A DNA stretch of 64,000 nt from an uncultured virus (IMG/VR IMGVR_UViG_3300033233_000003) (lineage: Duplodnaviria > Heunggongvirae > Uroviricota > Caudoviricetes): IMG/VR virus record IMGVR_UViG_3300033233_000003; one strand, 5' to 3'. Under the pieces are notes generated by a model. The model did no database searches and was not told where the DNA came from. It worked only from the letters and a program-made list of their open reading frames with translations. Below, in pieces: positions 12,784 to 58,609 of this stretch (its first letter is position 1; each line of letters begins with the position of its first letter). Made by a program: the position numbers and the translations under genes.

Positions 12784-12916
12784 TTTTGACCTCCACTGAC
12801 ATGCGTGGTCCTGAGCAGGCTCGCGAGTGACTTGAGTTGGTTCATCAGTGACCTCCGAGAGAGTGATCGGGCGCGCCAAGCGGTGCCGAAGGCGACCGCG
12901 TTGGGACTTGGCTCGG

Positions 12917-13597
12917 TTACGTATTCACCTCGCGGACGAAGAGGGAGGCGTGATCGCTCGCCGGACGTGTCGTGGGGAAGATCCGCGCGAAGCCGCCGCC
13001 CCGTGCCGCCCAGCGCAAGATGACCGTGTGCAGGCCCGCGATCGGGACCGGGACCTTGAGCGTGATGCCGCCGCTTTCGATGCGGCCTTGGGCCGACGTG
13101 GTCCAGCCGAAGCCGCGGATGTCGAGACCGTCCACGTTGACGACGAAGTCTGCGCCGGCGTTCACCGTGTCGCTGTCGCCGCTCGTGTCCGCCTGGATCT
13201 CCAGGCTCGTTCCGCCCGCGGTGATGACCGGCACGGTCAGGAGTGCGACGAGGAACACGCTGTCTTCGTCGATGTCGTCGACCTGCTCGGCGAACGGCGG
13301 CGCGACGTCCGGCAGCGTCACGGTCGTGCCGCAGGGCAGGCACGGGCCCAGGATCCATCGACCGGGGATGGCTGGGTCACCGAGGGGAAACGGCCCGGTG
13401 ACGGCTCCTTTGGTCGTGATGACGTTGACGCCGTCGTCCGGCGCGAAGCTCGCCTTGTCGAGGTAGTAGTACCTCAGCGTCGTCGTGAGGAATGCGAGGT
13501 CGCCCGTGCGGAGCGCGGTCGCGTCCACACCGCGAAGCTGGAAGGCGTTCAGCTCGCTCGTCTGGACGTATTCGAGGGTTCCTGCGGTCGCGGGCAT
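12917..13597 (-). CDS. Short spike-like protein, paralog of 12076-12783
   Basis: Near-identical anchor; ends SDHASLFVREVNT. Confidence 0.7.
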   Translation of the reverse strand: MPATAGTLEYVQTSELNAFQLRGVDATALRTGDLAFLTTTLRYYYLDKASFAPDDGVNVITTKGAVTGPFPLGDPAIPGRWILGPCLPCGTTVTLPDVAPPFAEQVDDIDEDSVFLVALLTVPVITAGGTSLEIQADTSGDSDTVNAGADFVVNVDGLDIRGFGWTTSAQGRIESGGITLKVPVPIAGLHTVILRWAARGGGFARIFPTTRPASDHASLFVREVNT

Positions 13598-13691
13598 CTC
13601 GGGTGGCTCCTGCGGGCTGCGCTCGTCGCGCGGGTCCGGTTGGAAACCACCCCCGTGGTGCCACCATCGATCGAATCTGCTGAGAGGGAGA

Positions 13692-16148
13692 CTACCCGGT
13701 GGCTTCGGAAGAGTCCAGGGGAGGTTCCGAGGGCTCGGGAGGGACCCGTTTCGGGGTCGCCGGGAGGTTCAAGTCGGGGACAGAGGGCTGCATATCAGTC
13801 TGTTTTTTGTCCTTTTCAGGCGGCTTTTTCTGCACCACGAGCGAAGGCATGGCGTTTCCGTCGGCGTCGAGGGGACGAGGGATGAGGCGGCCGTTGTCTT
13901 CCCAGTCGAAGTAGCACTTGCGTTTGTTGCTGCTGCCGCGGCTCTTCTTGTAGACCCGAAGGCGGATGGTGCTCGACAGTTCATCGACCGGGTGAAGCGT
14001 GACGGGATCGACGTGCTCGATCATCACGCCGAAGGACGCCTCGTGCACGGCCTTGTTGGGTCCGGCGAGGTCGCCGTCCTTCGTGCAGTGCATGATGAGG
14101 AAGATGACGCACTTTCGTTTGCCGGCGTGTCGTCCCCTCGCCTGCGCGCGCTGGAAGTAGATCTTGGCTGCGTGCGTGATCTGCGCGTTGTCCCCGGAGC
14201 TGGTCTCGTCGCTCTCGCTGCTGCCGGCGGAATCGACGACGACGAAGCGACAATCGTGTCGATCGATCTCCTCGATGACCTCTTCAGGCGAAGTGCACTC
14301 GTGGACGCGGAATCGATCGAGGCTGCCGGGCCATCGCGCGAAGACGCCGCCCTCGATCTCGCCGCTGCCTTCTCTGGCTCGAAGCGTGACGTCTGTCTCT
14401 CCTTCCTCGCCCGCGGCGTAGAGACCGTTCTCTCCGTGGATGGAGGTCATCGCAGCGAGAACTTCGGTGAGCAAAGTGCTGTTGTGTGTGACGGTGAAGT
14501 CTCCGAGCAGGAAGCGTCCGTCTACGTCGAGTTGAAATCCATAGAAGTCTCCGTCGCCGATTGGTGTGACGATGAAGCCCGTGACGTTCACACGCTTGAT
14601 CTGTCGACGAGGGTTGGCCTTGCGTCTTGCAACTTTGCATGGAATGCGATCGACGTCGCCGCTGATGCAGATGTACCAATAGATGCCAGAGAATCCGATT
14701 GATTTGATTGTAGAGACGTGTTTCTTCGCATAAGCGGCGAACCCGAGACTTCTTGCTAGAAAGAGGTACTGGTTGCAGAGGTGTTGACTGACGGTGGAAA
14801 GGATGTAGGTCGATCCTGTGTGCGTGAGCATTCCGTCGGTGTCGAGGATCCCAGCGAGAAGCTTCAGTCTCGTCGTTTCATCGTTGTAGATGTACTCCGA
14901 TGGAATGTGCTTGCCGCCGTCGAGGACGCAGCGCTCGCTGAAGAAAACGCGGAGTGGATTGGCACCGTGTTCTTGGCTCAATCCGCGAAATGCGATGTTT
15001 CGCGTGTTCTGTTTCGGAAGTTCGGTCACCGTGACGGTGACGCCGTGCTTCTTCGCGATTTGCTGGCAGTAGGAGAGGATCTCTGGCTCTCGGTTCGTGA
15101 TGCGCGGAGACGCGAGGTGCCCGTCTCCGATCCAGATTCCGAGTAGATATGGATCGATGTCGATGGATCGACGCTGGAAGGAGACGCGCGCGCGGAGGAG
15201 CTTCCAGTCTCGATCGAGTTTGCACCTTTTTTCTTCGCAGTTTGCGATGTGTTCGTGGAGCGGGATGTCGATCGTCTGTCCAGCCTGATCTCGCGTTCCA
15301 GTGAGTGTCATGACGTGAGCGTCGTTGCAGATCCACGGTTCGCCCTTGACTGGTGTGATGAGGAAGAGCGGTCCTCGATCGTGATTCACCGACAGGACTG
15401 TTCGTGGCCTGGAATCCGGTCCCATGAGTAGATCTCCGACGGACACAAGTTCGACGGGAATGATCTCGCCCGTGTGGAGCATCACTGGCGTTCCCTTGCC
15501 GAGGCACTTCCCCGCCCCTGGAGGTGCGGCAACCATCGCGAGACATCCTTCGAGCGGACCGCCTCCGCCGAAGAAGTGATCGAGTTCAGGGAAGCCCGTG
15601 GACAATCGAGGGTGGTGGATGGCCCTGATCTCCCTCGCTCGCTTGCTGCGTGGCTCGATGACGACGTTGCCGTTGCTCTGGGTTGCCGCTTGGGTTTCAA
15701 TCGTCGGGCTCTTCGACGACTCGATCGTCTGGCTCTTCTTCTGGAACTGGAAAGCCTTGAGGTGTTCCGTAGATCGGCCGCTGCCGGAGGTCGCCGGAGT
15801 TTGCGCGACAGTTTCCTGCGAGGCTCCAGCGGCGCCGGACGTGACCGCGTTGGACTGTGTGGCAGGATCTCCCTGCATGGTCGTCGCGCAGGGACCATCG
15901 ATGATCTGAGTTTCAACTGCGACGACTGCGACGATGGTGTTGAAGATGGTGCAATTTGGGCACATCGATCGCCACTTCTTGAATCGCCAACCGCACTGCT
16001 CCCTTACACATTGAAAGGCGTAGCCGAACCACTCGGCGTCGGGCACGCGAGGATCGAGGCTGCTCGCACCCGCGAGCGCGATGGACACGTTGCGGTTCGG
16101 GCCGGGGCCTCCCGACCCGCGGCTGCCAGGTCCCCCGGGTCTCAGCAT
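13692..16148 (-). CDS. radA: RadA/Sms-like ATPase with an intein; no Lon-like C-terminal domain
   Basis: Zn finger FQC..QCGW..KW..MCPNC..FNT; STGFPELDHFFGGG; Walker A APPGAGK|S split by the intein; VVVDS Walker B; HCTKDGDLAGP. Confidence 0.85.
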   Translation of the reverse strand: MLRPGGPGSRGSGGPGPNRNVSIALAGASSLDPRVPDAEWFGYAFQCVREQCGWRFKKWRSMCPNCTIFNTIVAVVAVETQIIDGPCATTMQGDPATQSNAVTSGAAGASQETVAQTPATSGSGRSTEHLKAFQFQKKSQTIESSKSPTIETQAATQSNGNVVIEPRSKRAREIRAIHHPRLSTGFPELDHFFGGGGPLEGCLAMVAAPPGAGKCLGKGTPVMLHTGEIIPVELVSVGDLLMGPDSRPRTVLSVNHDRGPLFLITPVKGEPWICNDAHVMTLTGTRDQAGQTIDIPLHEHIANCEEKRCKLDRDWKLLRARVSFQRRSIDIDPYLLGIWIGDGHLASPRITNREPEILSYCQQIAKKHGVTVTVTELPKQNTRNIAFRGLSQEHGANPLRVFFSERCVLDGGKHIPSEYIYNDETTRLKLLAGILDTDGMLTHTGSTYILSTVSQHLCNQYLFLARSLGFAAYAKKHVSTIKSIGFSGIYWYICISGDVDRIPCKVARRKANPRRQIKRVNVTGFIVTPIGDGDFYGFQLDVDGRFLLGDFTVTHNSTLLTEVLAAMTSIHGENGLYAAGEEGETDVTLRAREGSGEIEGGVFARWPGSLDRFRVHECTSPEEVIEEIDRHDCRFVVVDSAGSSESDETSSGDNAQITHAAKIYFQRAQARGRHAGKRKCVIFLIMHCTKDGDLAGPNKAVHEASFGVMIEHVDPVTLHPVDELSSTIRLRVYKKSRGSSNKRKCYFDWEDNGRLIPRPLDADGNAMPSLVVQKKPPEKDKKQTDMQPSVPDLNLPATPKRVPPEPSEPPLDSSEATG
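14481..15506 (-). mobile_element. Intein (342 aa) with LAGLIDADG homing endonuclease in the RadA Walker A
   Basis: Starts CLGKGTPV after GK and ends FTVTHN before Ser; block B CNDAH; LLGIWIGDG and LLAGILDTDG. Confidence 0.92.
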
Positions 16149-16921: not shown

Positions 16922-17025
16922 GGGGAGGGAGAGGCGAGAGGAGAGCGAGAGGAGAGCGAGAGGAGAGCGAGAGGAGAGCGAGAGGAGAGGGAGAGAGCGA
17001 GAGGGAGAGCGAGAGGGAGAGGAGA

Positions 17026-17183
17026 GGCTATGAGGGAAGGGCGGGAAGTGGGATGGTGGATTGCGGTGCGCGGGGGAGACGATCTTTGCCGTCTAGGCGA
17101 GTGAGGGCCGACACCGCGCTCCGGCGCGCGGACTGCCGTTTCGGATGCTGGCGCATCCTCCTCTCGCGTGCTCCCGATGGTCG
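17026..17183 (-). repeat. ~160-bp structured intergenic element, copy 1; purine-rich tail at 16922-17025 on the + strand
   Basis: Core GGCGCGCGGACTGCCGTTTCGGATGCT and box CTCCCGATGGTCG, both shared by six copies. Confidence 0.95.
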
Positions 17184-17256
17184 CACCGAGGAACGGCAGG
17201 ATGCGCGTTTGTCTCGAAGCGGTGGGATGTGTTTGGGTGGGATGTGTTTGGCCGAG

Positions 17257-18710: not shown

Positions 18711-18712
18711 GG

Positions 18713-21895: not shown

Positions 21896-22192
21896 CTAGT
21901 CATCCATGCGCACGCGAACTTCGATGGTCTGGCCACGCTTGTGACGATGAACCGCGAGCTGTACGTCACCGTCGAGGTCGCCGGAGTGTCGCGCGAGCGC
22001 GTCGCGGAGTCGTCGGTCAGCCTGCGTCGCGTTCTTCGCGATGCCGAACTTTCTCATCTCCGTGTCCTCTACGCCGATGCTCTCCACGTCGAAGATGAAC
22101 GGGATCTGCTCCTCGACGAGCCAGGCGACGACCTCGCGAAGTACAGCGTTGATCGCTCGATTGATCCTCTCCCCTGATCTTCTCGTGGACAT
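21896..22192 (-). CDS. Hypothetical protein
   Basis: GGAGGA RBS before MSTRRSGERINRAI. Confidence 0.6.
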   Translation of the reverse strand: MSTRRSGERINRAINAVLREVVAWLVEEQIPFIFDVESIGVEDTEMRKFGIAKNATQADRRLRDALARHSGDLDGDVQLAVHRHKRGQTIEVRVRMDD

Positions 22193-22218
22193 GGTTCTTC
22201 CTCCGTTTCTCTGCGCGC

Positions 22219-23199
22219 TCAGCGCGTCGTGAGCTTCGCGGCGACGAGCCCGAGCCCCAGCATGCCGAGGATGAGGAATGGCATCTCTCCGCTCGGCTCG
22301 GCAGGGCGCATCACGTCGAGCACGGGTTTTGCGATCTTCGGCGGCGGTGCCTTCGTCGATCCGGGGACGGTCGCCGGCTTGCCCGGTGTCGTCGTGGATC
22401 CTGGCCAAGGCAGCGCGACGTTGGGGTAGCGAAGTTCGAGCGGACCTTCGTCGCTGAGCAGCGGGAAGAACTTGGGGTGCCTCGCGATCCACATCAGGTC
22501 GACGGCGTCGGAGCCGGTCGGGCCGGTCAAAAGTCCCTTCCGTGATGCGTACTGCTCCTTGTGGGAATAGTCCGGGTCGTAGTCGGCCTTGTGCCCAGAA
22601 TAATCCTTCTGCACGAAGTCGAGCGGCAAGGCGTCGCTCACGAGGCCGCCCTGGATGGCGAGGCTCCCGAGCGGGTAGCCCCGTCGGTTCACGAGCGTCT
22701 TCTGTCCGCCTTCGGCGAGTTTTTGTCCTCTTTGGATTCCCTTGGCGGCGTAGATCTTCTCTCGCCGGGCAAAAGCGTCGATCCAGGCGCCGGTGCTCTC
22801 GATGTCGCCAGGGATGCCGCCGGTCTTGTACCAAGGGAATCCGGGCGTCTGGAACGGGATGCGGCTGGCTGCGGTCCCGATGTCGCGGAGCATCTTGCGT
22901 GTCGGCATCACCGCGTAGAGGTCGTCTGCGACAGCCTGCGCGTTGTCCGCGAAGAGGCCGACGGGGAAGGAGTCGGCGTCCGTGCCGAGCGCGAGTCCGT
23001 CGGGCATCACCGGGTAGGTGAGCGTCCACTTCTCTCCGTCGATGGTGTCGGAGACGGTGATGGGGATCCACGGAAGGGTGACGATCCAGCTCGGGACCTC
23101 GCGGTTCTTCCAGCCGGCCATGATCAGCGCTTGACGTTCGGCGCCTCGCTTGTCTGCGAGGAGCTTCGCCCATTCTGCGCCGGTGCGGATGGCCATCAC
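22219..23199 (-). CDS. Conserved-looking hypothetical enzyme-like protein with a C-terminal transmembrane anchor
   Basis: VMPDGLALG..AQAVAD..PTRKM..DYSH; Pro/Thr linker; FLILGMLGLGLVAA tail. Confidence 0.65.
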   Translation of the reverse strand: MMAIRTGAEWAKLLADKRGAERQALIMAGWKNREVPSWIVTLPWIPITVSDTIDGEKWTLTYPVMPDGLALGTDADSFPVGLFADNAQAVADDLYAVMPTRKMLRDIGTAASRIPFQTPGFPWYKTGGIPGDIESTGAWIDAFARREKIYAAKGIQRGQKLAEGGQKTLVNRRGYPLGSLAIQGGLVSDALPLDFVQKDYSGHKADYDPDYSHKEQYASRKGLLTGPTGSDAVDLMWIARHPKFFPLLSDEGPLELRYPNVALPWPGSTTTPGKPATVPGSTKAPPPKIAKPVLDVMRPAEPSGEMPFLILGMLGLGLVAAKLTTR

Positions 23200-23678
23200 T
23201 TCTTCTTGTATGGCTTGATCTTGATGTTGCGCTCGCGTGATTGGAACCTGATGTACTTCGCTGCGTCGGTGCCGTGAATCGCCTCGAAAGCTTCCATCGG
23301 CGTGAGCTTGTAGCCTGTGCCGTTGATGCTTTCACGGAAGTATTCGTCGGCTCGCTGCCAGGCATCTTCGTCGGAGAGGCCTTCCTTCTTGGCGTCGGCG
23401 TACAGATCCTTCAGGTGATCGTCGTAGCGTTCCTTCATCCACTCCTCGTGGATCTCGAAAGCAGGCTGAAGGGCAGCATCTGGGCTGTGGGCGTGATAGC
23501 GGTTTTGCACAGCGTAGATCGACGCCGTGTGTGGCCCGTAGCTAGATACATCCATCACGAGAGAGACGTAGACGGGGGTGTCTTCGTCGAGATCGATGTC
23601 TCCTTCGGCATCACCGCCTACCAGTATGACGCCCTGGTCGAGCATCTCCGCCAGCGCCTCGGCGTCTTTCTTGGACAT
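23196..23678 (-). CDS. Acidic hypothetical protein downstream of long-repeat copy 2
   Basis: AAGGTAG RBS-like site; coupled to the next gene. Confidence 0.65.
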   Translation of the reverse strand: MSKKDAEALAEMLDQGVILVGGDAEGDIDLDEDTPVYVSLVMDVSSYGPHTASIYAVQNRYHAHSPDAALQPAFEIHEEWMKERYDDHLKDLYADAKKEGLSDEDAWQRADEYFRESINGTGYKLTPMEAFEAIHGTDAAKYIRFQSRERNIKIKPYKKK

Positions 23679-23731
23679 GATGATTTTCTACCTTACGTGG
23701 ATGATGAACAAGAGGGAGAGGGAGAGCGAGA

Positions 23732-23888
23732 GGCTACGAGGGAGGGCTGGGGAGTGGGCGGGTGAAGTGTGGTGCGCGGGGGGAGGTGGTCGCCGTGATC
23801 GAGGCGAGTGAGGGCCATCACCGCGCACGGGCGCGCGGACTGCCGTTTCGGATGCTTCGCATCCTTTTTTCGCGCCTCCCGATGGTCG
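23732..23888 (-). repeat. ~160-bp structured element, copy 2
   Basis: Same core and box. Confidence 0.95.
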
Positions 23889-24000
23889 GCCGGTGAAGTA
23901 GCGGTGAGGGTCGACATCGCGCACGTGCTGCTCGGTCGCGCGCTCCTGTTGGTCGCGCCGATCGAGAGGGATGGAAGGTTGGGATGAGGTCTGGTGGGGG

Positions 24001-25019: not shown

Positions 25020-25281
25020 GGTCGTCTTCCTTCGAGAGGATCTCCATCAGGCTGATCCCTGGGTCGGTCGGATCGTCTTCCTCTTCCGAGAAGATCTCCA
25101 TGAGCGTCTTGCCGATGGGCGGTTGCATCGGCGTGGCCTCGTCGACGAGCGTCGCGAGCGAGTTCCCAAGCGGCGCCGAAGGCGACCGCGTTGGATCAAC
25201 GAGCTTCTTCTGGCGCGCGCGGGCCGCGTCGCGCTCGGCGTTTTGGGCCTGGACTCTTCGGATCTGCTCGTCGGTGATCAC
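25012..25281 (-). CDS. Hypothetical protein containing a hairpin copy
   Basis: GAGGAG RBS before GTG; PTRSPSAPLG peptide; start uncertain. Confidence 0.45.
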   Translation of the reverse strand: MITDEQIRRVQAQNAERDAARARQKKLVDPTRSPSAPLGNSLATLVDEATPMQPPIGKTLMEIFSEEEDDPTDPGISLMEILSKEDDHG

Positions 25282-25716: not shown

Positions 25717-25811
25717 TTTCTTTTCCTTGTAACGCGGTGGCCCTCGGCGCCGCTGGGTCCCTGACATGCGTACTCGGCGAGGTGATTCTCGTGAGCTGTG
25801 ACGTTCCCGTC

Positions 25812-26207: not shown

Positions 26208-26587
26208 CCCACTTTGCCTCCGCGCCAGGGCATGTTGTCGAGAGCGATGAGGCAGACGCTCATGAAACGATCGGCCGCGGCGATCGTGCCGAGGAGCGTC
26301 GGCGGGATCGCTAGCATCAGGATCTCGCGGATCTTCTCGACGACGGGAGGCTCCTTCGGAGGGTTCTCCATCTCGGCGAGGATCTTGAAAAGGTGGCTAG
26401 TCATCCTCGACCTCGTGTGGAGGAGGTCTTCGCAGAGGGTCTCCTGGACGAGCGACGAGCAATGGCTCGACCTCGTCTGCGAAGCTGTGCGCGACGGTCG
26501 TGTGCCATTCGCTGTCGCGGGATGAGGAAGGAGAAGGAGAAGGAGAAGGAGACGGAGAAGGAGACGGAGAAGGAGACGGAGACGAGA

Positions 26588-26766
26588 GGCTATGAGGGAA
26601 GGGGGAGGAGTGGGGCGTGGGATCGTGGTGCGCGGGGGAGGCGGACACTGCGCTCGAAGGCGAGAGAGCCGACACCGCGCACGGGCGCGCGGACTGCCGT
26701 TTCGGATGCTTCGCATCCTTCTCTCGCGCCTCCCGATGGTCGGCCAGAAGCGCCTCCCGATGGTCG
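26588..26766 (-). repeat. ~160-bp structured element, copy 3, with a duplicated CTCCCGATGGTCGGCCAGAAG box
   Basis: Same core; box present twice; GGAGA(A/C) tail at 26521-26587. Confidence 0.95.
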
Positions 26767-29232: not shown

Positions 29233-29296
29233 GAATTTCAGCTTTCGACGCGGTCACCTTTGATGCCGGAGAGGGAGAGGAGAGAGGAAGACGAGA

Positions 29297-29454: not shown

Positions 29455-29461
29455 CGCCCAA

Positions 29462-33262: not shown

Positions 33263-33748
33263 TCATCGCGCGAACCTCGCGAGGCTCTTGCCGAGCACCT
33301 TCTTCAGCGGTGCGCTGTCCATCACGTCGCGGGCCGTGCTCGGGAAAAATTCGCTCTCGCACTCGATCTGAAATCCACAAGCGGCGGCGGAGCCGACCGC
33401 GTTTGGATCGTCGAAGACGATGGGCTTGTTCGCGACGATGGCCTGGTAGGTGAGGTCCTTCTGGGATCGGCTCGACAGCGTTTCGTAGAACTCGTAAATT
33501 GGACGCGCGCTCGCGGAAAGCTCCTCGGGCTCGTCGGAGAGGACGACGGACGGTGGCAAGTTTGTCATGTCCGAGAGCTGGAAGCGGTTCATCGTCAGAT
33601 CGCCGTCCTCATCGTCGAGCGGCTTGCCGAGTGGCTGGAGCATGCCGCGATGGTGAAGATAGGCGATGACGACGGCGGCGTTGACGCTCAGCGGATGCGG
33701 ATCGCGCCAGATGACCGTGAGCGAGCGGATCCTTCCCCTGGCGCTCAC
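33263..33748 (-). CDS. Hypothetical protein containing a covariant hairpin copy
   Basis: Coupled to its neighbours; PNAVGSAAA peptide. Confidence 0.55.
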   Translation of the reverse strand: MSARGRIRSLTVIWRDPHPLSVNAAVVIAYLHHRGMLQPLGKPLDDEDGDLTMNRFQLSDMTNLPPSVVLSDEPEELSASARPIYEFYETLSSRSQKDLTYQAIVANKPIVFDDPNAVGSAAACGFQIECESEFFPSTARDVMDSAPLKKVLGKSLARFAR

Positions 33749-33981
33749 GGGTCGTCTCCGTCGGGAAAGAGCAGCGACGTGATCGCGAAGAGGGAGATCC
33801 AGAGCGGCCAGAGCACGCAGATGAAGATCCAGGCGGCGGTGACTAGCGGCGCCGGAGGCGACCGCGTTGGAACGGTCGTGCGACCGACTCCCTCTTCTTG
33901 ACGCTTCGCTCGGATCATCGCGAACGCGACAGGCAGCGCGATGAAGAGGTCGATGAAGAGGTAGGTGGCGAGGGTCTTCAT
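33745..33981 (-). CDS. Small two-TM membrane protein; the loop contains a hairpin copy
   Basis: Two hydrophobic segments flanking PTRSPPAPLV. Confidence 0.6.
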   Translation of the reverse strand: MKTLATYLFIDLFIALPVAFAMIRAKRQEEGVGRTTVPTRSPPAPLVTAAWIFICVLWPLWISLFAITSLLFPDGDDP

Positions 33982-35678: not shown

Positions 35679-36149
35679 TCACGGGAAATACGTCTTCTTC
35701 GGCAGCGCGCCTCGAAGGATGTTCGCATGCGTCAAGAGCTTCTTGTCCCAGATGCGCAGCGCTTCGATCAGCCTGTCGAGGTAGAAGACATCTTCCTCCG
35801 ACGCGACGCCCTTCTTTCCCGTCGCTCCGACGGCGTAGCTCATGGCCGTGTCGAGCACGTGCGTCGCGGCCAGATACCACGCGGGAGGTCCGTGCCGCGT
35901 GGGACTCATCGCCTGCACCGGCGCCATGCGAGCCGGCGCGGTCCATCGAGCGACCGGCGGCTGTGCCTCTGGCATGGTCGAGATCATGTCTTTCGGCGGC
36001 GGACGCGTCACGGTGGTGATTTCGACGGGCGAGAACGTCGGCGGAGGGTTCGGTCCCGCAACTCGCGCGAAATTGTCACGAGCGGCCACGAAGTGGACCG
36101 CGTTGGTAGAGGAACCGCTCTCCCAGCCGTGGACGGGGCACCAGTGCAT
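35679..36149 (-). CDS. Hypothetical protein containing a covariant hairpin copy
   Basis: TNAVHFVAA peptide; Pro-rich linker. Confidence 0.45.
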   Translation of the reverse strand: MHWCPVHGWESGSSTNAVHFVAARDNFARVAGPNPPPTFSPVEITTVTRPPPKDMISTMPEAQPPVARWTAPARMAPVQAMSPTRHGPPAWYLAATHVLDTAMSYAVGATGKKGVASEEDVFYLDRLIEALRIWDKKLLTHANILRGALPKKTYFP

Positions 36150-38928: not shown

Positions 38929-38997
38929 GCTGAGAAGGACGCAGTGAGAGTCACGGATCTGACAAGCGGTCGCGAGGCGAAGCGCGCGAGGACATGT

Positions 38998-39491: not shown

Positions 39492-39677
39492 TGGTCGCCT
39501 TGTCCTGGCCAGCGGCGCCGCAGGCGAGCGCGGTTGCGAGGAGCCAGGAAGAAAGTCCGAGGCCACGCGCACGAGCGATCTTCTGGAGACGATGCTTCTG
39601 TCGAGGCGTCGCGCGGATGACGATGATCGCGCTCTTCTTCTCCATCGGCGTAGATCTACATTCGATCTACACGATGG

Positions 39678-41305: not shown

Positions 41306-41619
41306 GGTTCGCTCCCCGGACGGGCTTCGACAGCCGCTCGGCCCGCCTTCGTGATCTCTGCGCGCGTCCGCTCGCGGCTGTCATAGGACACGCGACGCTC
41401 GACGACGAGTCCGGCGGCGACGAGCGTGCGGATCGTCTGCGGCCGTATTTTTCTAACGCGGTCGCCTGCGGCGCCGCTGGGCCCCATCCATTCAGGTCGT
41501 CGTTCGGCGTCCTCGGCGAAGAGGAGCAGCGCTCGACGCTGTGCGTCTGCGCTCGCGCCGCTGCGCCGAGGCGATGCTCAAGAGATCTGAGCGGTTGGAT
41601 GTCGATCTCTCTGCTCAAC

Positions 41620-42639: not shown

Positions 42640-42921
42640 ATGGGGGCTCCCATCAAGCAGAAGGAAGGGTATCGCCAGGAGAGCGCGAGTCTCCAGCGCA
42701 TCCATCGTCGAATCTCCGAGGACGACACTCGGGATCAGGCGTGGCGCGTGAAGATGCTCGGCCTCCTCGACAAGCTCGTGGCCGGCTTCAACGAGGACAC
42801 CGTCGCGTCGCTCCTTCAAACGCGGTCGCCTTCGGCGCCGCTAGTTCGCAAGGGCAGCGATGAGCACGGGGAGTCCTCGGAGGCCGGCGACGGCTCATCG
42901 GATTCTGAAGTGAACAGCTAG
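42640..42921 (+). CDS. Hypothetical protein containing a hairpin copy
   Basis: ATG 12 nt after the TGTCAG motif; QTRSPSAPLV peptide. Confidence 0.55.
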   Translation: MGAPIKQKEGYRQESASLQRIHRRISEDDTRDQAWRVKMLGLLDKLVAGFNEDTVASLLQTRSPSAPLVRKGSDEHGESSEAGDGSSDSEVNS

Positions 42922-44095: not shown

Positions 44096-44557
44096 ATGGA
44101 GAACGGTCAACCTGGAATCTACGTGGCAAGCAAGACGAAGCACGCTGCTCGATGGAAAGGCATGCGAGCCAGCGGCACACCGATCATCTCTACCTGGATC
44201 GATCTTGCCATCGACAAGGCAAAGGATGGAGCCGTCGATCATGCCGATCTGTGGGATCGGTGCATCGAAGAGGCGGCGTCCTCGACGGCGGTCGTCGTCT
44301 ACTTCGAGGAGGGCGAGGTCTTCAAGGGCGCCTACGTCGAAGTCGGCGCCGCGCTCGCGAGCAAGGTTCCGGTCTTCCTGGTCGGTGACCCGTCTGGCAC
44401 TTGTTGGGGTCATCGTCTCGTCACGCGTTGCGCGACCGTGGAGGAAGCGTTCAAGAAGGCGTTTCATGTGTGGCTCGATCGTCCCGTCATGACCGACCAA
44501 GAGGAGCCTCTCTCCACCAGCAATGCCAAAGGTGACCGCGTTGAGGTGACGTCGTGA
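44096..44557 (+). CDS. Nucleoside 2-deoxyribosyltransferase-like protein
   Basis: IYVAS...GAYVEVGAALASKVPVFLVG. Confidence 0.7.
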   Translation: MENGQPGIYVASKTKHAARWKGMRASGTPIISTWIDLAIDKAKDGAVDHADLWDRCIEEAASSTAVVVYFEEGEVFKGAYVEVGAALASKVPVFLVGDPSGTCWGHRLVTRCATVEEAFKKAFHVWLDRPVMTDQEEPLSTSNAKGDRVEVTS

Positions 44558-45071: not shown

Positions 45072-48000
45072 ATGGAGCGAGAGGAGACGATGGAAGACTG
45101 CGAGCGCTTCATCACGGCTGAGGGTCGCGAATGGAACGGATCTGTCTTCCGCTGGCCACATGAGCGTGGTCGCCCGAGAGGTAGGCCGATCGAGCGTAGG
45201 TCGGAGAAAAGGAGATCTCGTCACGAAGAGGAGCGCTGGTTCATGGAAGGGATGGAGGAAGACGACGAGGCCGTCGAGGAAGGAACGTTGCTCTCGCCTG
45301 TGGCCGACGAGAAGGCGAAGAAGGAGGAGAGCGAGTACCTGAAGCCGCTGACGGGCAAGCTCCGTCATCGCGACGTCGCCGTCTACGACGTGGAGAGCAA
45401 GGACGGCGACAGCCAGGAGAAGGGCTTCACCCGGCCCTTCATGATCTGGCTCCACTGGGAGGACGAGTTCGGCTTCCAGGAGCACCGCGTCTTTCGGGAC
45501 AGCGACGAGGCTCGCCGCAAGGACCCACTCAACGTGCTCCGTCACTTCCGGTGCAAGGGTGCCACGCTCGAAACGGACCCCGGACCGAACACCTCGAAGT
45601 ACGCGGCCGACGCGATGAACGGAGGGTTGCAGGCCTTCGTGCGCTGTCCAGGCTGCGCCGACTGCCTCAGCAAGCGCCACTACGGACCTGGCGGGTGCGT
45701 CGACCAGTTCCTGCGATTCGTGCTCGCGATGGACCTCTGCCCGTCTTGTCAGAGCGACGGCGGGGGTCGGCGTTGGCGGAGCAAGACGTGCATGTGCAAG
45801 AGGCTAGAGAAGCGCTTCCAGCAGAAGCCGAGCAGGCCGTCCAGCAGAATCACGAACGGCTCCGAAGGCAATCGCCTTGGGACGAAGGGCACGAACATCT
45901 ACGCGCACAACGGCGGGAAGTTCGACCACCTCTTCCTCCTCGGGTGGCTCCGCGAGCACCGCGACACGTTTTCCTTCGAGATCGCGAGCGTCCAAGCCCG
46001 CATCCAGCGGCTCGACGTGTGGCCGCGCTTCAAGAAGAAGAAGGAGGGCTTCTGGTCTTTCCTCGATTCGGTCTCGCTCCTGCCCATGTCGCTCGGCAAG
46101 ATCGGCAAGACGTTCTGCCCTGACCGCACCCAGAAGGGCAAGATGCCGGAAGCCGACGAGTGGGACGAGCGCTGGGACGAGTACAACCGCGACGACTGCG
46201 TCGTGCTCCGCGAGGGGCTGCTCGCGTTTCATCGGCTCATCGCGCAGCTCGGCGGCGAGGTCGGCATCACCGCGCCGGCGACTTCCATGAAGCTCTTCCG
46301 ACGACGCTACATGAAGAAGCAGTGGATCTTCCGCAACGCGCACTTCCACCGCTGCGACGATCGCTGCGTGGCCTTCTTCTCCTCTGCCGGGTGCGAGCGA
46401 TCGAGCTGCGAGGGGCGCTGCCACGGCTGCGCGCACCAGTGGGTCCGAGGTGGCTACTACGGCGGGCGCACGGAGATGTTCCAGGAGTGGGGGCCGAAGG
46501 GGACATCGTACTACGACGTGAACAGCAGCTATCCGGCCTCGATGCTGGATGACATGCCGGTCGGCAAGATGATCGAGGTCGACTGCAGCAAGATGAGCAC
46601 GAGGCATGCGTTGCTGCTCCTCAAGAAATTGCGCAAGACGAGCATCGGCTTCGTCGAATGCGAGGTGGAGATCCCGAAGACGTGCCAGATCCCGCCGCTG
46701 CCGCATCGAGACGAAAACGGCAAGCTCACCTTCGAGACGGGGTTTCTCTCCGGCACCTGGGACTACGACGAGCTTGCGCTGCTCGATCATCCGCTCGTGA
46801 TGGGGAGGATCCTCTCGATCAAGAAGACGGTCTGGTACGGCAAACGGGCTGTCTTCCGCGAGATGGTGGACACTGTCTTCGAGTATCGGAACAAGTCGCG
46901 CGAGGACTACAGCGAGGGGCTCTCTTTCTGCGCGAAGCTCATGCTGAACTCGCTCTACGGAAAATTCGGGATGCGCGAGGAGCGGAGCGGGCTCGTCTGC
47001 ATCGGACCTGGAGACCCTTGGCCCGAGCACGGCATCCCGATCGACGGCGATCACGAGACCTGCGACATCTGGGAAGTCGAGAGGATCGTCGAGGCGAGCT
47101 ACATCATCCCGCAGATCAGCGCCCACATCACGTCGCTCTCGCGGATTCGACTCTTCCTCGGGCTCATCGCGATCGTCAGCGCGGGAGGAACGATCCTGTA
47201 CGGAGACAGCATCTCGGGAGACAGGACCGTGGTGGTGCAGGATCCTCAGAAGCGCACGCACGTGATTCCCATAGAGAGACTCTGGAGGAGATTCGCAAAG
47301 AAGGACGTTCGATGGGACAAGAAGCAACTCGGCGCGCTCCCGGGTTGGAAGGCTCTCGCACGAGATGGCGCGGGCAAGGAGGGTTGGTTCTCTCTGGGTG
47401 GAATCATCAGGCATCGAGTGCACAAGGAGATGTGGCTCGTCAGCAACAGGCGTGGCCAGACGGAGGTCACTGAAGATCACGGCATCATCTCCGGCGGCAA
47501 GGCCGTCACGCCGGCAGAGTTCGTCGACAGACAGTTGGTCTTCGAGAAGATCAAGGCGCAGCCGTCTCTCTACGTCGGCAAAGCGATCGATCTGCTCGAA
47601 CACCTCGACGAATCGATCATGAGCAGGACCGTCTCCGGCGGCGGGGAGAAGAAGTATCGATTCGAGCCGAGGGGCGAGTGGATGCGCTTCAAGAAGGGTG
47701 AAGACGAACCGGAGCCTCGTGACATCAGGAGGATCTACAGACCGAACTCGAAAGAGCTTCATTCGCTGCTGCGTCTCTTGGCTGCTTACCTCGCGGAGGG
47801 AAGCGCGAGTCTCGCTACCAGGACCACCTGTCGCTTCGTACTGTCCATCTCTCAGGCCGACGAGACATGGCTCGACGTGCTGAAGACCGACTTCTCCGTC
47901 ATCGCTCCTGAATACCCGATCTTCGGTCCATATCAGACCGCAGGCGCCTCGGTGATCCGATCCGGCACGGCCGCGATGAGCTTCTTCTTCGCCGGACTCT

Positions 48001-49034
48001 GCGGCTTCAAGTCTTGGGGCAAACGTCTGCCGAGCTTCATCTACGACCTCGACGAGGAGGATTTTCAGGTGTTCTGGCAGCACATGCTCGACGGTGACGG
48101 GAGCCGCATCGAGAAGAGGAAGCCCAGTGACGCCAATCCTCGATGGATTTGGCGTAGGCAACACATCGACGAGCAACGCGTCACATACACGACCATCTCT
48201 CAGGAGTTGTGTGCCGGTCTCTCTTACCTCCTCGATCAGCACGGCATCGAGCATGGCATCAATTATCGACCCAAGAAGAAGTGCTGGTCGATCGCCACGC
48301 GTCCCGCTGGAACCGAGCGAATGGGCGGCAAGCTCAAGCCTGGAAACGTCGCCAAGGTAGAGCGAAGGGTCGCGAAGAACGAGTGGGTCTATGATCTGAA
48401 CGTGCCGGGCGCAGGAACGTTCGTCGACGGACTCGGACGAGTGCTCCTGCACAACACGGACAGCTCCACGTGCTTCTTCCCGAAGGATTCGCCCGCGGTC
48501 GACGCGGACGGTACCTTCCTCGGCGGCCCCGACATGAAGATCGGCAGTGCCCTCGGCGAGTGGAAGCGCGAGGAGCCGGGCATCCTCCTCGACGGAGATT
48601 TCATCCTGCCGAAGCTCTACCAGCTCCGCGCGCACAAGGACGACTGCGTCGATCCGGACTGCGAGGGGTGCCGCTTCGTGTGGCACGTGCCCGGCTGCAA
48701 GGGCGAGGAGGACAAGACGTGTCCAGGCTGCGCCGCGACGAAGATCAGGGCGAAGGGCGTGCCTTACCTCTCGCAGACGCTCGTGACCTGGAATCGTATC
48801 TTGCCGAAGGACAAGGGCGGTAAGGGCGAGAAGGTCTACTTCGACAGGCTCGGACAGCATAAGTCGATGCTCAACAAGCGCCACGGGACGCCCGGCATGA
48901 CGCACACGCATAAATCTATTCGCACGAAGTACGACAAGCGAATTCTCAAGCCGGACGGCACCACGGTGCCGAGGCACGTGCCGAAGAAGCTGCCCGCTTC
49001 GACTGAGCCGGCCCGCAAAGCACTCGGGGCTTGA
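45072..49034 (+). CDS. polB: Family B DNA polymerase of protein-primed type with an intein (true start may be downstream, ~45243)
   Basis: YDVES, YAHNGGKFD, FLDS, YNRDD, YYGGRTE, YDVNSSYP, KLMLNSLYGKFG, YGD|TDS, LGEWK, PKLY, KGV. Confidence 0.93.
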   Translation: MEREETMEDCERFITAEGREWNGSVFRWPHERGRPRGRPIERRSEKRRSRHEEERWFMEGMEEDDEAVEEGTLLSPVADEKAKKEESEYLKPLTGKLRHRDVAVYDVESKDGDSQEKGFTRPFMIWLHWEDEFGFQEHRVFRDSDEARRKDPLNVLRHFRCKGATLETDPGPNTSKYAADAMNGGLQAFVRCPGCADCLSKRHYGPGGCVDQFLRFVLAMDLCPSCQSDGGGRRWRSKTCMCKRLEKRFQQKPSRPSSRITNGSEGNRLGTKGTNIYAHNGGKFDHLFLLGWLREHRDTFSFEIASVQARIQRLDVWPRFKKKKEGFWSFLDSVSLLPMSLGKIGKTFCPDRTQKGKMPEADEWDERWDEYNRDDCVVLREGLLAFHRLIAQLGGEVGITAPATSMKLFRRRYMKKQWIFRNAHFHRCDDRCVAFFSSAGCERSSCEGRCHGCAHQWVRGGYYGGRTEMFQEWGPKGTSYYDVNSSYPASMLDDMPVGKMIEVDCSKMSTRHALLLLKKLRKTSIGFVECEVEIPKTCQIPPLPHRDENGKLTFETGFLSGTWDYDELALLDHPLVMGRILSIKKTVWYGKRAVFREMVDTVFEYRNKSREDYSEGLSFCAKLMLNSLYGKFGMREERSGLVCIGPGDPWPEHGIPIDGDHETCDIWEVERIVEASYIIPQISAHITSLSRIRLFLGLIAIVSAGGTILYGDSISGDRTVVVQDPQKRTHVIPIERLWRRFAKKDVRWDKKQLGALPGWKALARDGAGKEGWFSLGGIIRHRVHKEMWLVSNRRGQTEVTEDHGIISGGKAVTPAEFVDRQLVFEKIKAQPSLYVGKAIDLLEHLDESIMSRTVSGGGEKKYRFEPRGEWMRFKKGEDEPEPRDIRRIYRPNSKELHSLLRLLAAYLAEGSASLATRTTCRFVLSISQADETWLDVLKTDFSVIAPEYPIFGPYQTAGASVIRSGTAAMSFFFAGLCGFKSWGKRLPSFIYDLDEEDFQVFWQHMLDGDGSRIEKRKPSDANPRWIWRRQHIDEQRVTYTTISQELCAGLSYLLDQHGIEHGINYRPKKKCWSIATRPAGTERMGGKLKPGNVAKVERRVAKNEWVYDLNVPGAGTFVDGLGRVLLHNTDSSTCFFPKDSPAVDADGTFLGGPDMKIGSALGEWKREEPGILLDGDFILPKLYQLRAHKDDCVDPDCEGCRFVWHVPGCKGEEDKTCPGCAATKIRAKGVPYLSQTLVTWNRILPKDKGGKGEKVYFDRLGQHKSMLNKRHGTPGMTHTHKSIRTKYDKRILKPDGTTVPRHVPKKLPASTEPARKALGA
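47208..48455 (+). mobile_element. Ser-initiated intein (416 aa) with LAGLIDADG endonuclease in PolB motif C
   Basis: YGD|SISGD...VTEDH...LAAYLAEGS...MLDGDG...VYDLNV...LLHN|TDS. Confidence 0.93.
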
Positions 49035-50800: not shown

Positions 50801-51289
50801 TTGACGCGCGTGATCACGTCGTGTATACACACGAGCAGCCACGAAAATGGAGAGGTCCTGATGGCGCTCGACGACTACAAGGGTGCGGCGAACAGCAACG
50901 AGGTCTTCCAGACGCTCGTGGGAGAGAAGATCGTTGCCTGCTTCCTCAATGATCGTGGCGACCTCTACCTCGTGACGAAGTGCGGCGCAGCACTCGTCGT
51001 TCATCCGAACGGCGAGGTGCTCGCGTGGTGGGTCGAGAAGAAGGCCGACGTGGATCGGATCGTCGCCAAGCGTCGTGCGGAGATCGAGCGGAAGATCGCC
51101 GAGCTACGTCAGCTCGGGAGCATCGAGATTGAGCGGTCGCGAAGCGAACCGCGTGGGATGAGCGTCGAGATCGTAGAGCCCGTCGCCAACTGTGACGGCT
51201 CGGGCCTCTACGCCTACGATCGGACCCGAGAGGACGGCCGAGGAGTGAAGCTCGCCCTGCCGTGCTCCGGTTGCAGGGCATGCCGATGA
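50801..51289 (+). CDS. Hypothetical protein
   Basis: ORF in operon; likely start MALDDYKG. Confidence 0.55.
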   Translation: MTRVITSCIHTSSHENGEVLMALDDYKGAANSNEVFQTLVGEKIVACFLNDRGDLYLVTKCGAALVVHPNGEVLAWWVEKKADVDRIVAKRRAEIERKIAELRQLGSIEIERSRSEPRGMSVEIVEPVANCDGSGLYAYDRTREDGRGVKLALPCSGCRACR

Positions 51290-53770: not shown

Positions 53771-54063
53771 ATCGATGCATCTCCTCGCAAAGCTCCTAGA
53801 CGAGGTCGTCGATGCACGACGGATCTCCACGCGGCTTCATGAGCAGATGGCGTTCGATCACGTGATCGTGCGCATCCGAGAGATCATGGCTGCGGAATAC
53901 GAGTGGCTTCATCCTTCGTGCCCGGAATGCGGCGGCGATCTTGGCGGCGCTCACCTCGGACGGCTCGAAGATCATCGAACGAACTGCCCTCTTTTTCCAC
54001 TCTGACGCGGTTCGCTCCGCGACCGCTGAACTCTCTGAACGCTCTGAACTGAGGACCATCGTC

Positions 54064-54654
54064 ATGACCAAGAAGCTGAATCGAACGCCTGCGAAGAGAT
54101 CAACGCCCGGCATGAATCGTCCCGCGCGACGATCAAAGGCGGGTCCCGCCTTCGACGGCGCCTCGTGGCGAGAGGGTGCGAAGCGTCGAGAGAGCGCGAT
54201 CGACGAGGCCGAGGCGCACGCTCAGGCCGTCTGGCTCGCCTCGGCGTCGCTCGCGGTGCGCGCGGTCGCGTCCATGCGTGCGAAGTTCACGACCGATCAT
54301 GTCTGGGCGCACCTCTTCGCCGTCGGCGAGCAGGGTAAGAACGGTGAGGAGATGAACAGGCCGAGGGAGCCTCGGGCCATGGGCGCGGTGATGCGCACCG
54401 CGAGCCGCGAGCAAGTCTGCGAGCGCACGGACACTACCGTCTGCAGCGTGCGGGCGAGCTGTCACCGGCGCCCCTTGCGGATCTGGAAGAGCAAGATCCA
54501 CAAGCCGACGTTCGGCAGCAGCATGGAATCCATCGGCATCGCGGCGGGCCTCGGCGCGATCGGAGTGAAGACGAAGGCGACCCCTGCGAAGAGGAAAGCG
54601 ACCCCTGCGAAGAGGCCGAAGGCGACGCGTCGTAGGTTGCCGAGGTCTACGTGA
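54064..54654 (+). CDS. Phage winged-helix-like protein
   Basis: GAGGA RBS; FTTDHVW...EPRAMGAV...HRRP.RIW.S. Confidence 0.55.
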   Translation: MTKKLNRTPAKRSTPGMNRPARRSKAGPAFDGASWREGAKRRESAIDEAEAHAQAVWLASASLAVRAVASMRAKFTTDHVWAHLFAVGEQGKNGEEMNRPREPRAMGAVMRTASREQVCERTDTTVCSVRASCHRRPLRIWKSKIHKPTFGSSMESIGIAAGLGAIGVKTKATPAKRKATPAKRPKATRRRLPRST

Positions 54655-56644: not shown

Positions 56645-56887
56645 ATGAAGACGAAGAGCGAGCGAGAGCGCACGAAGACGAAGAGTGGGCGGAAGCGCGT
56701 GCTTGGCAGCATGTCTCGAATCAATTTCGTGATCGTCACGCAAGATGGCGGTTGCGTGGAGTACAAGACGCATCCTCATTCAACGTTCGACGAAAAGCAC
56801 GTCAAGGGCGTCGCTGCGCTCATGCTGATAGCACTCGGCGTCGAGCTTCCGGTGACCATCACCGAGAAGGATGTCGAGGGCGCGTGA
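56645..56887 (+). CDS. Small protein, paralog of 56161-56397
   Basis: About 50 bp of identical DNA. Confidence 0.6.
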   Translation: MKTKSERERTKTKSGRKRVLGSMSRINFVIVTQDGGCVEYKTHPHSTFDEKHVKGVAALMLIALGVELPVTITEKDVEGA

Positions 56888-58146
56888 TGGCGACTGACGA
56901 CGAAAAGAAGGAGAAGGCGTCGTTCTTCGTTCCGGAGAACGCTCGCGTCGAGCGTGCGGAGGAGCACCTCTCGCCTTCGGGGAAGTACAAGCTCGTCGTG
57001 ACGCCATACTCGACGACGAACGGCGGCTGGGACTACTCCAGAGGAGTCGTCTCCATCGCCGGCTCAGTCGTCACGCGGTCCGCTTCGCGGCCGCTAGGCG
57101 CGGTCTTGGCCGAAGTTCTTCGCAACTACGGCATGTTCCCCTTCACCTTCGTCGAGGGGCACGGCAACGGCCACGACTACCTCATCTGCGGTGAGGACTA
57201 CCAGGGTCAGACCGTCGTCGAGCTGGACACCAGTTCCGACGCGGTCGCCTTCGGCGCCGCTAGTCCCGACGCGGTCGCCTTCGGCGCCGCTAGTCCCGAC
57301 GCGGTCGCCTTCGGCGCCGCTAGTCCCGACGCGGTCGCCTTCGGCGCCGCTAGCAAGCGGGTCGATCATCTGCCTGAGGAGGCGGAAGCCGGAGCCGCGT
57401 TCTGCTGGGAAGAGGCGAGGTTCGACGCGTCCTCGAAGATGCTGCTCGTCTGCGGCTGTCACTGGGCCTGTCCGTACGAGTTCCGCTTCTACGACTTCTC
57501 CGATCCGATGGCCGGCTGGCCGGAGATCGAGGCCGACGGGTGCGTTTTTGCCGATCGCAAGTGGCCGATCGTTGAATCAGGCGGGATCGTCAAGTGCTAC
57601 CAGACGAAATCGACTGATGATGGTGATGGCGATGGTGACGAGATCAGCGGCGCCGAAGGCGACCGCGTCGGCGGTGACGATCTCGTTGAGTCCATCATGA
57701 CGTTCAAGCGAGAAGGGCAAAAACTGGTTCTCCAAAGCGAATGGGTGTCGGACGAGGAGAAGGCGCGCCGCGCTGCCCGCGAGGAGGGCAAGCGCAAGTA
57801 CGAAGCGTGGAAGGCGGAGTTTCGGTCGACGGATCCGCTCTACCTGACGTACGTCGAGCTGATCAAAGATCCGGCGCTCTCGCCTGAGGAACACGAGAGC
57901 ATCGGCGTCACGCACGAGAGCTGGTGCCCGCATTTTTCCGGCGACGAAAGGCGTTGGTGTCGACGGCTTCTGAACGGCGACCGTGGAAATGAGAAGCGCC
58001 AGCATACGGTCGACCTCGAATGGGCCGTGATCTCCGGCCCCGTCAAGCTCGTCGTCTTCAAGGACGGCGAGCACGTCGAGGACAAGTTCTTCGAGCACTC
58101 GGTCGACGGCATGAAGGAGGCGTTTGCTCATGCGAAGTCGCTCTAG
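56887..58146 (+). CDS. Acidic hypothetical protein carrying six hairpin copies
   Basis: TRSASRPL, (DAVAFGAAS) x4 and SGAEGDRVG peptides; frame intact. Confidence 0.7.
   Translation: MATDDEKKEKASFFVPENARVERAEEHLSPSGKYKLVVTPYSTTNGGWDYSRGVVSIAGSVVTRSASRPLGAVLAEVLRNYGMFPFTFVEGHGNGHDYLICGEDYQGQTVVELDTSSDAVAFGAASPDAVAFGAASPDAVAFGAASPDAVAFGAASKRVDHLPEEAEAGAAFCWEEARFDASSKMLLVCGCHWACPYEFRFYDFSDPMAGWPEIEADGCVFADRKWPIVESGGIVKCYQTKSTDDGDGDGDEISGAEGDRVGGDDLVESIMTFKREGQKLVLQSEWVSDEEKARRAAREEGKRKYEAWKAEFRSTDPLYLTYVELIKDPALSPEEHESIGVTHESWCPHFSGDERRWCRRLLNGDRGNEKRQHTVDLEWAVISGPVKLVVFKDGEHVEDKFFEHSVDGMKEAFAHAKSL
57231..57353 (+). repeat. Tandem array of four 30-bp hairpin units
   Basis: Unit TAGTCCCGACGCGGTCGCCTTCGGCGCCGC; the first unit differs slightly. 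Confidence 0.97.
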
Positions 58147-58609
58147 TTCCAACGCAGTCGCCTCCGGCACCGCAGTTCCAATGCGGTCGCCTCCGGCGCT
58201 ACTGGTACGCTATCGCGTCGTGCTCACCGGCAAGGCCACGAGAGATCGCGTCCCCGTCTTCGAGTTCTGCTTCGGCGAGCGCAAGACGAAACGCGCCGCG
58301 GAGAACCTCGCGGTGAAGGTGCATGCTGCGCACCCGAAGGGCATCGTGAGGATCGACGAGAGGATCGAGGAGAAGCCTTCATGAAGCACTTCTTCGCCTC
58401 GGCGTTCGTCACGATCATGCTCATCTCGCTGAACGAGACGCCTCTCCTGGAGCACTCGGAGGAGCGCACGGTGTGGCTGCTGGGCATCACGGCCATGCTC
58501 GGGATCGTCACGTTCATTGCCGCGGTGATCGACGCCGTCCGCAACACTTGCTTCGACTGCGGATCGTGTGGCGGTTTGTCGAGCTGTGACGATCGCTGCC
58601 GGCTTTGCC

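Follow-up and report, generated by a model that had tools for sequence, protein, structure and literature searches.

How does a hairpin of some 30 nt come to lie many times over in a virus-like genome, in several cases inside its coding sequences? The stretch analysed here, hereafter the window, comprises 64,000 nt of an uncultured virus placed in the Caudoviricetes (IMG/VR record IMGVR_UViG_3300033233_000003), has a GC content of 63% and is part of a 188,059-bp contig. An earlier note, written from the letters of the window, had described about 21 copies of a bulged hairpin in both orientations, and had read it as either a structure-selected single-stranded DNA (ssDNA) signal or a mini-element resembling repetitive extragenic palindromes (REPs). 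The evidence taken as a whole is best explained, in our view probably correctly, by a family of 30-nt palindromic mini-elements of the kind known as REPs and Rickettsia palindromic elements (RPEs), which spreads by insertion.

A dispersed bulged hairpin

Searching the window for the pattern GCGG-NNNC-GNA-GNNN-A-CCGC (GCGGNNNCGNAGNNNACCGC) returned 15 exact matches against 0.02 expected, a count that none of 100 dinucleotide shuffles reached, and 40 matches with two or fewer mismatches against 8.1 expected. Permuting the codons within genes left a mean of 0.02 matches, with a maximum of 1 in 100 runs, so that both of these controls, a comparison suggested in the earlier note, were nearly free of copies (0.02 each). 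When synonymous codons were shuffled and the proteins kept, a mean of 4.4 matches (range 4-7) persisted, about the number of exact copies (4) that lie outside our gene calls. Since this last shuffling leaves little beyond those four, the motif is a feature of the DNA and not the by-product of a peptide; a peptide-level repeat was ruled out on this ground and on the use of four reading frames by the coding copies (NAV..GAA, TRS..APL, SGAEGDRVG and ERSRSEPRG).

The inner triplets, which the pattern leaves unconstrained, pair in 15 of the 15 exact matches, one of them through G.T, in contrast to 1 of 13 IMG/VR matches to a one-base-longer pattern (with an extra 5' A and 3' GT). Across 20 aligned window copies 96.3% of the stem cells are paired, and three stem pairs carry changes on both sides (15 cells), a level of covariation reached by none of 500 shuffles. 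The bulged A is invariant (20/20 copies in one alignment, 18/18 in another), and the triloop is GAA, GGA or GCA, the exceptions being copies 25734 and 38966 (GAG) and 29250 (AAA). This G-N-A loop, with its middle base free, is conserved on one strand only and is retained over differing inner stems, in the window and in the bacterial contigs described below alike.

On the motif strand the consensus reads C-Y-A GCGG CGCC GNA GGCG A CCGC GTTGGAA, for which the predicted fold is an 8-bp GC stem with a single bulged A, a G-N-A triloop, a 5' A-G foot and a 3' tail led by GT. The information content of 18 copies rises at -3 and drops past +26, counted from the first G of the core, marking out a 30-nt block that consists of C-Y-A, the 20-nt bulged hairpin and then GTTGGAA or GTCGGGA. 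Conserved block, tandem period and insertion size are all 30 nt. In the 5' foot C is found in 14/18 copies, followed by any base, by A(-1) in 17/18 and by G(0), predicted to be paired, in 18/18; no position of the element is more strongly conserved than A(-1), G(0) and the bulged A, and a CGT(C/T) overlaps the end of its stem.

A covariance model built on the copies recovered about 25 of them in the window, with 24 matches at E <= 0.01. Some copies are also named by a single position, copy 54007 being the one at 54000..54029 and copy 57075 the one at 57068..57097. They are listed below by position and motif strand, with the open reading frames (ORFs) concerned.

4638 (-) and 31195 (+): two weak copies from the covariance-model scan
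12877..12906, +: copy scoring 45.8 bits, counted with the intergenic ones; it lies at the start of ORF 12076-12879(-) or just upstream
15826..15855, +: degenerate copy of 37.3 bits, which ORF 13692-16148(-) reads in frame as NAVTSGAAG, in the segment linking a Zn ribbon to an intein-split RecA/RadA-like P-loop domain
25167..25196, +: consensus copy (48 bits), with no confident gene there
25727..25756, -: copy 25734 with a GAG loop (40.4 bits), just upstream of the Shine-Dalgarno site and ATG of a small (-) ORF ending at 25570
29243..29272, -: degenerate copy 29250 (29.6 bits), intergenic
33378..33407, +: copy 33381, inner stem CGGC/GCCG, in ORF 33263-33748(-)
33843..33872, +: copy (51.1 bits), in frame in ORF 33745-33981(-), read TRSPPAPL, forming the inter-helix loop of this small ORF with two transmembrane segments
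36079..36108, +: copy, inner stem CCAC/GTGG, near the N-terminus of ORF 35679-36149(-), whose true start is uncertain
38963..38992, +: copy 38966, degenerate and of the TCGC/GCGA subfamily, lying upstream of ORF 38602-38928(-)
39509..39538, +: degenerate copy, within the first 35 codons of the DUF4160 ORF 39222-39572(-), ahead of the domain
41451..41480, -: copy with a GCA loop (47.7 bits), intergenic
42815..42844, -: copy read in frame as TRSPSAPL by ORF 42607-42921(+), in its C-terminal tail
44517..44546, +: copy, weak and decayed (21.7 bits), within the C-terminal tail of ORF 44096-44557(+)
51130..51159, +: exact copy 51133, TCGC/GCGA subfamily, on the sense strand in a linker of ORF 50861-51289(+)
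54000..54029, -: copy 54007, TCGC/GCGA subfamily, intergenic, 27 nt upstream of the true start (54064) of ORF 54064-54654(+)
57068..57097, -: copy 57075, inner stem CCGC/GCGG, a 30-nt insertion in ORF 56887-58146
57234..57353, -: four head-to-tail 30-nt copies, a 120-nt insertion in ORF 56887-58146
57644..57673, +: consensus copy 57647 in ORF 56887-58146, opposite in orientation to the other copies of that gene and read SGAEGDRVG
58147..58205, -: two degenerate copies, 58154 and 58183, 29 nt apart and directly past the stop of ORF 56887-58146, coding status uncertain

By context, 11 of the 25 copies, representing 8 insertion events, are well-supported as coding, 5 are weak or uncertain coding copies, 7 are intergenic and 2 follow a stop codon. 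Most of what the earlier note had reported about the hairpin itself stands: a copy is present at every position that it gave, the inner stem changes and yet pairs, the bulged base is fixed, the loop keeps to GAA, GGA or GCA with few exceptions, and the coding copies are read in different frames. Its list was incomplete, lacking the exact copy 51133, the degenerate 38966 and the weak 4638 and 31195. The statement that more than half of the copies lie in ORFs is only roughly right, given the counts above, and the copy that it had put inside an ORF near 54004 is the intergenic copy 54007.

Empty sites and a bacterial sister family

The clearest view of how the copies arose comes from a single host gene.

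56887..58146, +: host gene of 419 aa, with six copies at three sites

This gene has 461 homologs, those named by source being Sorangium chromosomal proteins only, and 15 out of the 120 listed were taken into the alignment. Copy 57068-57097 corresponds to a clean 10-aa segment, VVTRSASRPL, which stands opposite a gap in 15/15 aligned homologs, and deleting its 30 nt in codon reading leaves ...AGS-GAVLA.... The array at 57234-57353 forms a clean 40-aa segment, again opposite a gap in all 15, and deleting its 120 nt gives ...ELDT-SKRVDHLP..., which runs colinear with the ELDT-GKRRDHLP of the homologs. The element-encoded peptides are missing from all 119 other homologs among those listed. The third site, at 57644-57673, sits in an acidic linker whose length varies among homologs. 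Clean multiple-of-3 insertions absent from homologs, which the earlier note had proposed looking for, are therefore present at two sites.

At the DNA level a relative's 43-kb contig, from the one run that holds this stretch and is probably its source, counts 103 letters against 223 in the window, exactly 120 fewer, the intervening letters being unaligned so that the identity of the 120 missing ones is not visible. Elsewhere in the window, the region of copy 33381 is absent in the only homolog of ORF 33263-33748 of similar length, which is 61% identical. Because the unit measures exactly 30 nt or 4 x 30 nt, the coding copies persist as in-frame 10-residue loops. The copies are recent insertions into unrelated genes, the identical fourfold array included, and we hold it very probable that the element multiplies by insertion, that is, that it is an insertional mobile element.

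Is the family confined to this replicon? The 22-nt core, with the loop base free, has no match in IMG/VR, and a degenerate pattern gave 13 matches there, 12 of them chance-like and one (L173) with a paired inner stem. Across 185,579 species genomes the core gave 81 single matches, nearly all in conserved genes and by chance, the only one with REP-like flanks being in a Polyangiaceae metagenome-assembled genome (MAG; L011). Metagenomes yielded 85 loci, about 30 of which, mostly from two samples, have the common flanks C(C/T)A...GTCCAGGA, often with degenerate neighbour copies 31-33 nt off. In 36 loci selected from the 85, the covariance model found 50 matches, including compensated inner stems and G-N-A loops, and a minor subfamily with inner stem CTGC/GCAG (3 copies) that has no bulged A. 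Most of these copies are found between genes or at the ends of genes, in mixed orientation (19 of them sense, 14 antisense, 17 ambiguous, between-sample duplicates included).

The contigs that carry this family have about 70% GC and encode aconitase, lysyl-tRNA synthetase (LysRS), LolCE, resistance-nodulation-division (RND) pumps, Ser/Thr kinases and non-ribosomal peptide synthetases, and they share no genes with the window save one distant homolog on contig L135. The LysRS of contig L119 is 73% identical to that of a Polyangiaceae MAG, and an Atlas look-up for this LysRS returned Myxococcota; the Sorangium homologs of window ORF 56887-58146 likewise point to Polyangia. An aconitase from a REP-bearing contig, compared with 301 Myxococcota genomes, was at best 56% identical, which is uninformative for placement. 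Judged by their gene content, the contigs are pieces of bacterial chromosomes, and the LysRS, the one marker gene tested, assigns contig L119 to the Polyangia (Myxococcota).

Nine sampled genomes, the closest Polyangia included, gave 0-4 matches each, the level of the reversed-pattern control, and the family is therefore lineage-specific, as REP families usually are. The earlier note had allowed for a match to a catalogued host REP; the family proved uncatalogued, with a sister family in chromosomes of uncultured Polyangia. The window and bacterial families are sister subfamilies with a common 23-nt core and a different 3' tail. Since this core family is dispersed in bacterial chromosomes as well as in the window, the element is a genomic parasite of bacterial type that also lives in a virus-like replicon.

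Two of the bacterial loci deserve separate mention. The 4.9-kb metagenome contig L135 (66% GC) has two bacterial-type copies, at 631-670 and 1732-1770, one of them within an ORF, together with a 29%-identical homolog of window ORF 6263-8242, and may be a second virus-like carrier. At L105:2545-2584 the element overlaps the last ~16 codons of aconitase, past the end of the family profile, and may supply a C-terminal extension of the enzyme.

Mobilisation and rival explanations

How might such a unit move? It is possible, if somewhat short of an even chance, that the mechanism resembles that of the REP-associated tyrosine transposases (RAYTs), an enzyme and an ssDNA route that we infer by analogy with E. 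coli. For TnpA-REP of that species, PMC3479197 describes an enzyme that works on single-stranded DNA, needs a mismatch in the stem for binding, and whose cleavage at CT is specified by the A and G of a 5' GTAG. Applied to the present element, a hairpin-specific single-strand nuclease or transposase of the HUH Y1 (RAYT-like) kind would act in trans, encoded by the host or by the remainder of the 188-kb contig. Its substrate would be the bulged hairpin, the A-G foot leading it to a C|T dinucleotide; cleavage at C|T on either side of the unit, followed by joining to a C|T target, would give the observed junctions, and the inserted unit, having restored a target at its own end, would give rise to head-to-tail arrays with an exact period. 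If the target were the single strand displaced in a protein-primed replicon, an orientation bias would result. On the motif strand the sequence is ...C|TAG...C|TG... at the two clean insertion sites and at each junction of the arrays, and the mixed orientation in the bacterial contigs favours recognition at the level of DNA rather than mRNA.

Set beside known systems, the element looks like a variant of the REP/RPE kind that falls outside every named family compared. IS200/IS605 elements have bulged subterminal hairpins read on one strand, foot guide bases that pair with the cleavage site, and a strand bias arising from insertion into single-stranded DNA. The bulged hairpin read on one strand is shared with them (PMC3479197 for the comparison); they differ in having two unlike ends and in inserting 3' of a tetra- or pentanucleotide, whereas here a single hairpin is the whole unit.

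The resemblance to the REP/RAYT systems of Enterobacteria and Pseudomonas is broader, taking in short GC-rich imperfect palindromes in many dispersed copies, compensated-stem subfamilies, an obligatory stem irregularity, conserved 5'-foot bases that include A-G, CT-bounded units and, in the bacterial contigs, a mainly intergenic placement. Unlike REPs, the element has a C-Y-A-G tag in place of the conserved unpaired GTAG, A-G alone being common to both, a 3-nt G-N-A loop, head-to-tail arrays instead of inverted REPIN/BIME pairs, and 8 insertion events inside coding sequence of a virus-like replicon, with no RAYT gene found in the 101 window ORFs.

RPEs, according to PMC10969869, are likewise palindromic and enter unrelated protein-coding genes in frame, the added peptide being tolerated. 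In-frame insertion with empty sites in the homologs (15/15 aligned) is the shared trait, in contrast to which RPEs measure ~100-150 bp and are found in Rickettsiales only, while the present element adds 30 nt, or 10 residues, in a Myxococcota-like context. The CGTC-tagged REPs of Di Nocera et al. 2013 (PMC3733652), as described there, include RPE-4 and RPE-6, have no known dedicated transposase, and combine A/T at the first two stem positions with an 8-9-bp stem, a 4-5-nt loop, a CCA tail and mostly head-to-head dimers. With these the element shares a hairpin abutting CGT(C/T), an 8-bp stem and the occurrence of intragenic units, and differs in its all-G/C stem, 3-nt loop, GTTGGAA tail and head-to-tail arrays. 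The literature searched contained no report of REP-type elements within bacteriophage genes.

Several observations weigh against an inserting, RAYT-mobilised parasite shared by bacteria and a virus. The gap at copy 33381 is 21 aa, exceeding the 10-aa element, and copy 51133 has no clear gap in the single partial homolog of ORF 50861-51289. The 5' tag is C-Y-A-G and not GTAG, and the CT junction rests on two clean sites plus the arrays, CT following only ~5 of 14 independent copies. None of the 101 window ORFs (46 + 55) matched PF01797 or any HUH family in a Pfam scan, as the earlier note had also found for RAYT/TnpA, and five related Polyangia genomes, from which the element is likewise absent, contained no HUH/Y1 or other mobilising candidate. 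In orientation 13 events in the window are antisense to local genes, 5 sense and 3 ambiguous by our tally, a bias not expected of a purely neutral parasite. As for the passage between bacteria and virus, the window tail GTTGGAA occurs in none of the bacterial contigs and the bacterial tail is absent from the window; these contigs come from samples other than the window's, and flow from host to virus is not shown. The virus (phage) nature of the window is itself graded as probable, no capsid, portal or true terminase having been identified among its genes.

Of the rivals the likeliest is that the hairpin is a functional ssDNA signal of the replicon, for instance a selected priming or protein-loading site on the displaced strand, that only looks like a REP. 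The polymerase is of the protein-primed type, the motif strand is + in the left part of the window and - in the right with few exceptions, the strand-specific G-N-A loop and the bulge are conserved, and the density is higher in the window (~24 matches per 64 kb) than in the bacterial contigs (~14 non-ascertained matches per 198 kb). Five copies nevertheless have the wrong orientation for such a signal (4638, 29250, 44510, 51133 and 57647), the core family also lies between genes in bacterial chromosomal contigs, the copies are the recent insertions into unrelated genes described above, and a selected signal need not fall inside coding loops. Because the copies change orientation where the genes change strand, replication and transcription are not separable in the window, and the antisense majority is compatible with transcription and, for a replicon copied from its two ends, with the displaced strand alike. 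We consider a selected signal improbable; of the two readings offered in the earlier note, the REP-like mini-element is borne out, and an ssDNA signal exposed by a strand-displacing polymerase stays at the level of inference.

Transcription leads to the next rival, in which the hairpin acts in the transcript as a terminator, stabiliser or protein-binding site. E. coli REPs are transcribed and influence mRNA stability (PMC12306157), and, most window copies being antisense, the mRNAs would bear a uniform complementary hairpin, which should form as readily as the motif strand itself (-11.7 and -11.8 kcal/mol predicted for the two strands). A role in RNA is at odds with the flanks of 18 copies, which have no T-run on either strand and hence no U-run after the hairpin, with Rfam, where the element has no match at the gathering score or at E<=1, and with the mixed orientation in the bacterial contigs. 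The strand of the window that has the conserved G-N-A loop and bulged A is, moreover, mostly untranscribed, and positions in coding loops lack regulatory sense, all of which makes an RNA-level element a poor prospect, weaker than a replication signal.

That the unit is a miniature transposable element with inverted repeats (MITE) moved by a DDE transposase is very improbable: the window does encode such an enzyme, the IS4-like SWIM+DDE gene 61137-62420, and the hairpin arms are formally inverted repeats, but known MITEs are far longer than 30 nt, a possible CT is all that could count as a target-site duplication, the inverted repeats around the transposase (~61114-61133 and 62615-62632) are unrelated to the element, and an asymmetric bulge with one-sided flanks misfits double-strand recognition of terminal inverted repeats. 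N4-type hairpin promoters were rejected, the copies lying in coding loops and in bacterial chromosomes.

The insertional REP/RPE-like element remains, and a bolder form of it can be put forward. A REP-type parasite of bacteria would be actively colonising a virus, the long displaced strands being the preferred target of a hairpin-specific HUH enzyme, encoded by the host or carried by the virus, and the virus ferrying the element between Polyangia hosts. The orientation would then flip between two replication arms, the density would be about five times the chromosomal one, and copies inside genes would survive only as 30-nt in-frame loops. We regard this extension as rather doubtful, though better placed than a replication signal.

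The genomic setting

The replicon in which the element lives has a polymerase of the protein-primed class.

45072..49034, +: family-B DNA polymerase (PolB), protein-primed type (PF03175), 1320 aa

Its closest phage relatives are tectivirus polymerases, at 29-36% identity, and its match to known enzymes is confined to residues ~240-730. The tectivirus-like and phi29-like replicons known to rely on such polymerases are far smaller than this contig of 188 kb. Searches for a close phage, in INPHARED by DNA and in IMG/VR by the core motif, PolB or protein P0125, found none. Other recognisable genes of the window encode a DEDDh exonuclease, a nucleoside deoxyribosyltransferase, an RNA-ligase-like protein, an M23 peptidase, a DNA methylase, the IS4-like transposase and a BrnT/helix-turn-helix (HTH) pair, the majority of ORFs having no family assignment. 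Attempts to find virion genes gave no usable result for ORF 29462-30274 (Atlas), ORF 21896-23365 (tblastn against phages) or the extra ORFs (PHROGs).

In ORF 13692-16148(-), which carries a degenerate copy, the exteins form a Zn-ribbon and a RecA/RadA/DnaB-like P-loop ATPase, and a Hint + LAGLIDADG intein is inserted directly after the GAGK of Walker A. A terminase label for this ORF was rejected, as the PHROG matches cover the intein only.

The window also contains a second, unrelated repeat, an intergenic cassette of 110-170 nt with 62-98% identity between pieces, in six copies.

17022-17190: cassette copy
23728-23891: cassette copy
26584-26745: cassette copy
29293-29456: cassette copy
30229-30343: cassette copy
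34035-34183: cassette copy

On the gene (-) strand the cassette ends in AAAGGAGGATG, and it looks like a shared promoter or leader with a Shine-Dalgarno site before six (-) strand genes. Towards the left end, the large ORF 3-2288(-) has internal repeats of 102/201 nt, and three neighbouring genes have in common a 273-nt N-terminal module (7971-8243, 9284-9556 and 11091-11363; 70-86% identity), one of them also carrying a Laminin_G_3 domain; together with ORF 3-2288 they are a possible set of fibre or receptor-binding genes. The strand-switch region holds a BrnT-type toxin with its HTH partner (37833-38461, +) and the DUF4160 gene (39222-39572, -). Further right, a run of 12-nt repeats at 43024-43308 (+) encodes a low-complexity segment of ORF 42941-44035 rich in K/E/A/G, and the short palindromes at 61114-61133 and 62615-62632, which share ACGGCCGT and lie on either side of the SWIM+DDE transposase gene, are possible ends of the insertion sequence.

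What does the element mean for the biology of such families? To our knowledge the movement of single REP units and of Rickettsia-type coding palindromes is still unsettled, and we know of no transposase for CGTC-type REPs or RPEs. The family described here offers an unusually clean substrate for this question: a 30-nt unit with boundaries given by empty sites, an array of exact period, a fixed bulge and foot, and a bacterial sister family. Such elements can inhabit a virus-like replicon, reshaping its proteins in steps of ten residues, and their presence links a protein-primed, strand-displacing replicon to a mechanism of transposition that is presumed to be single-stranded. If the colonisation of the virus were true, the virus would carry the element between Polyangia hosts.

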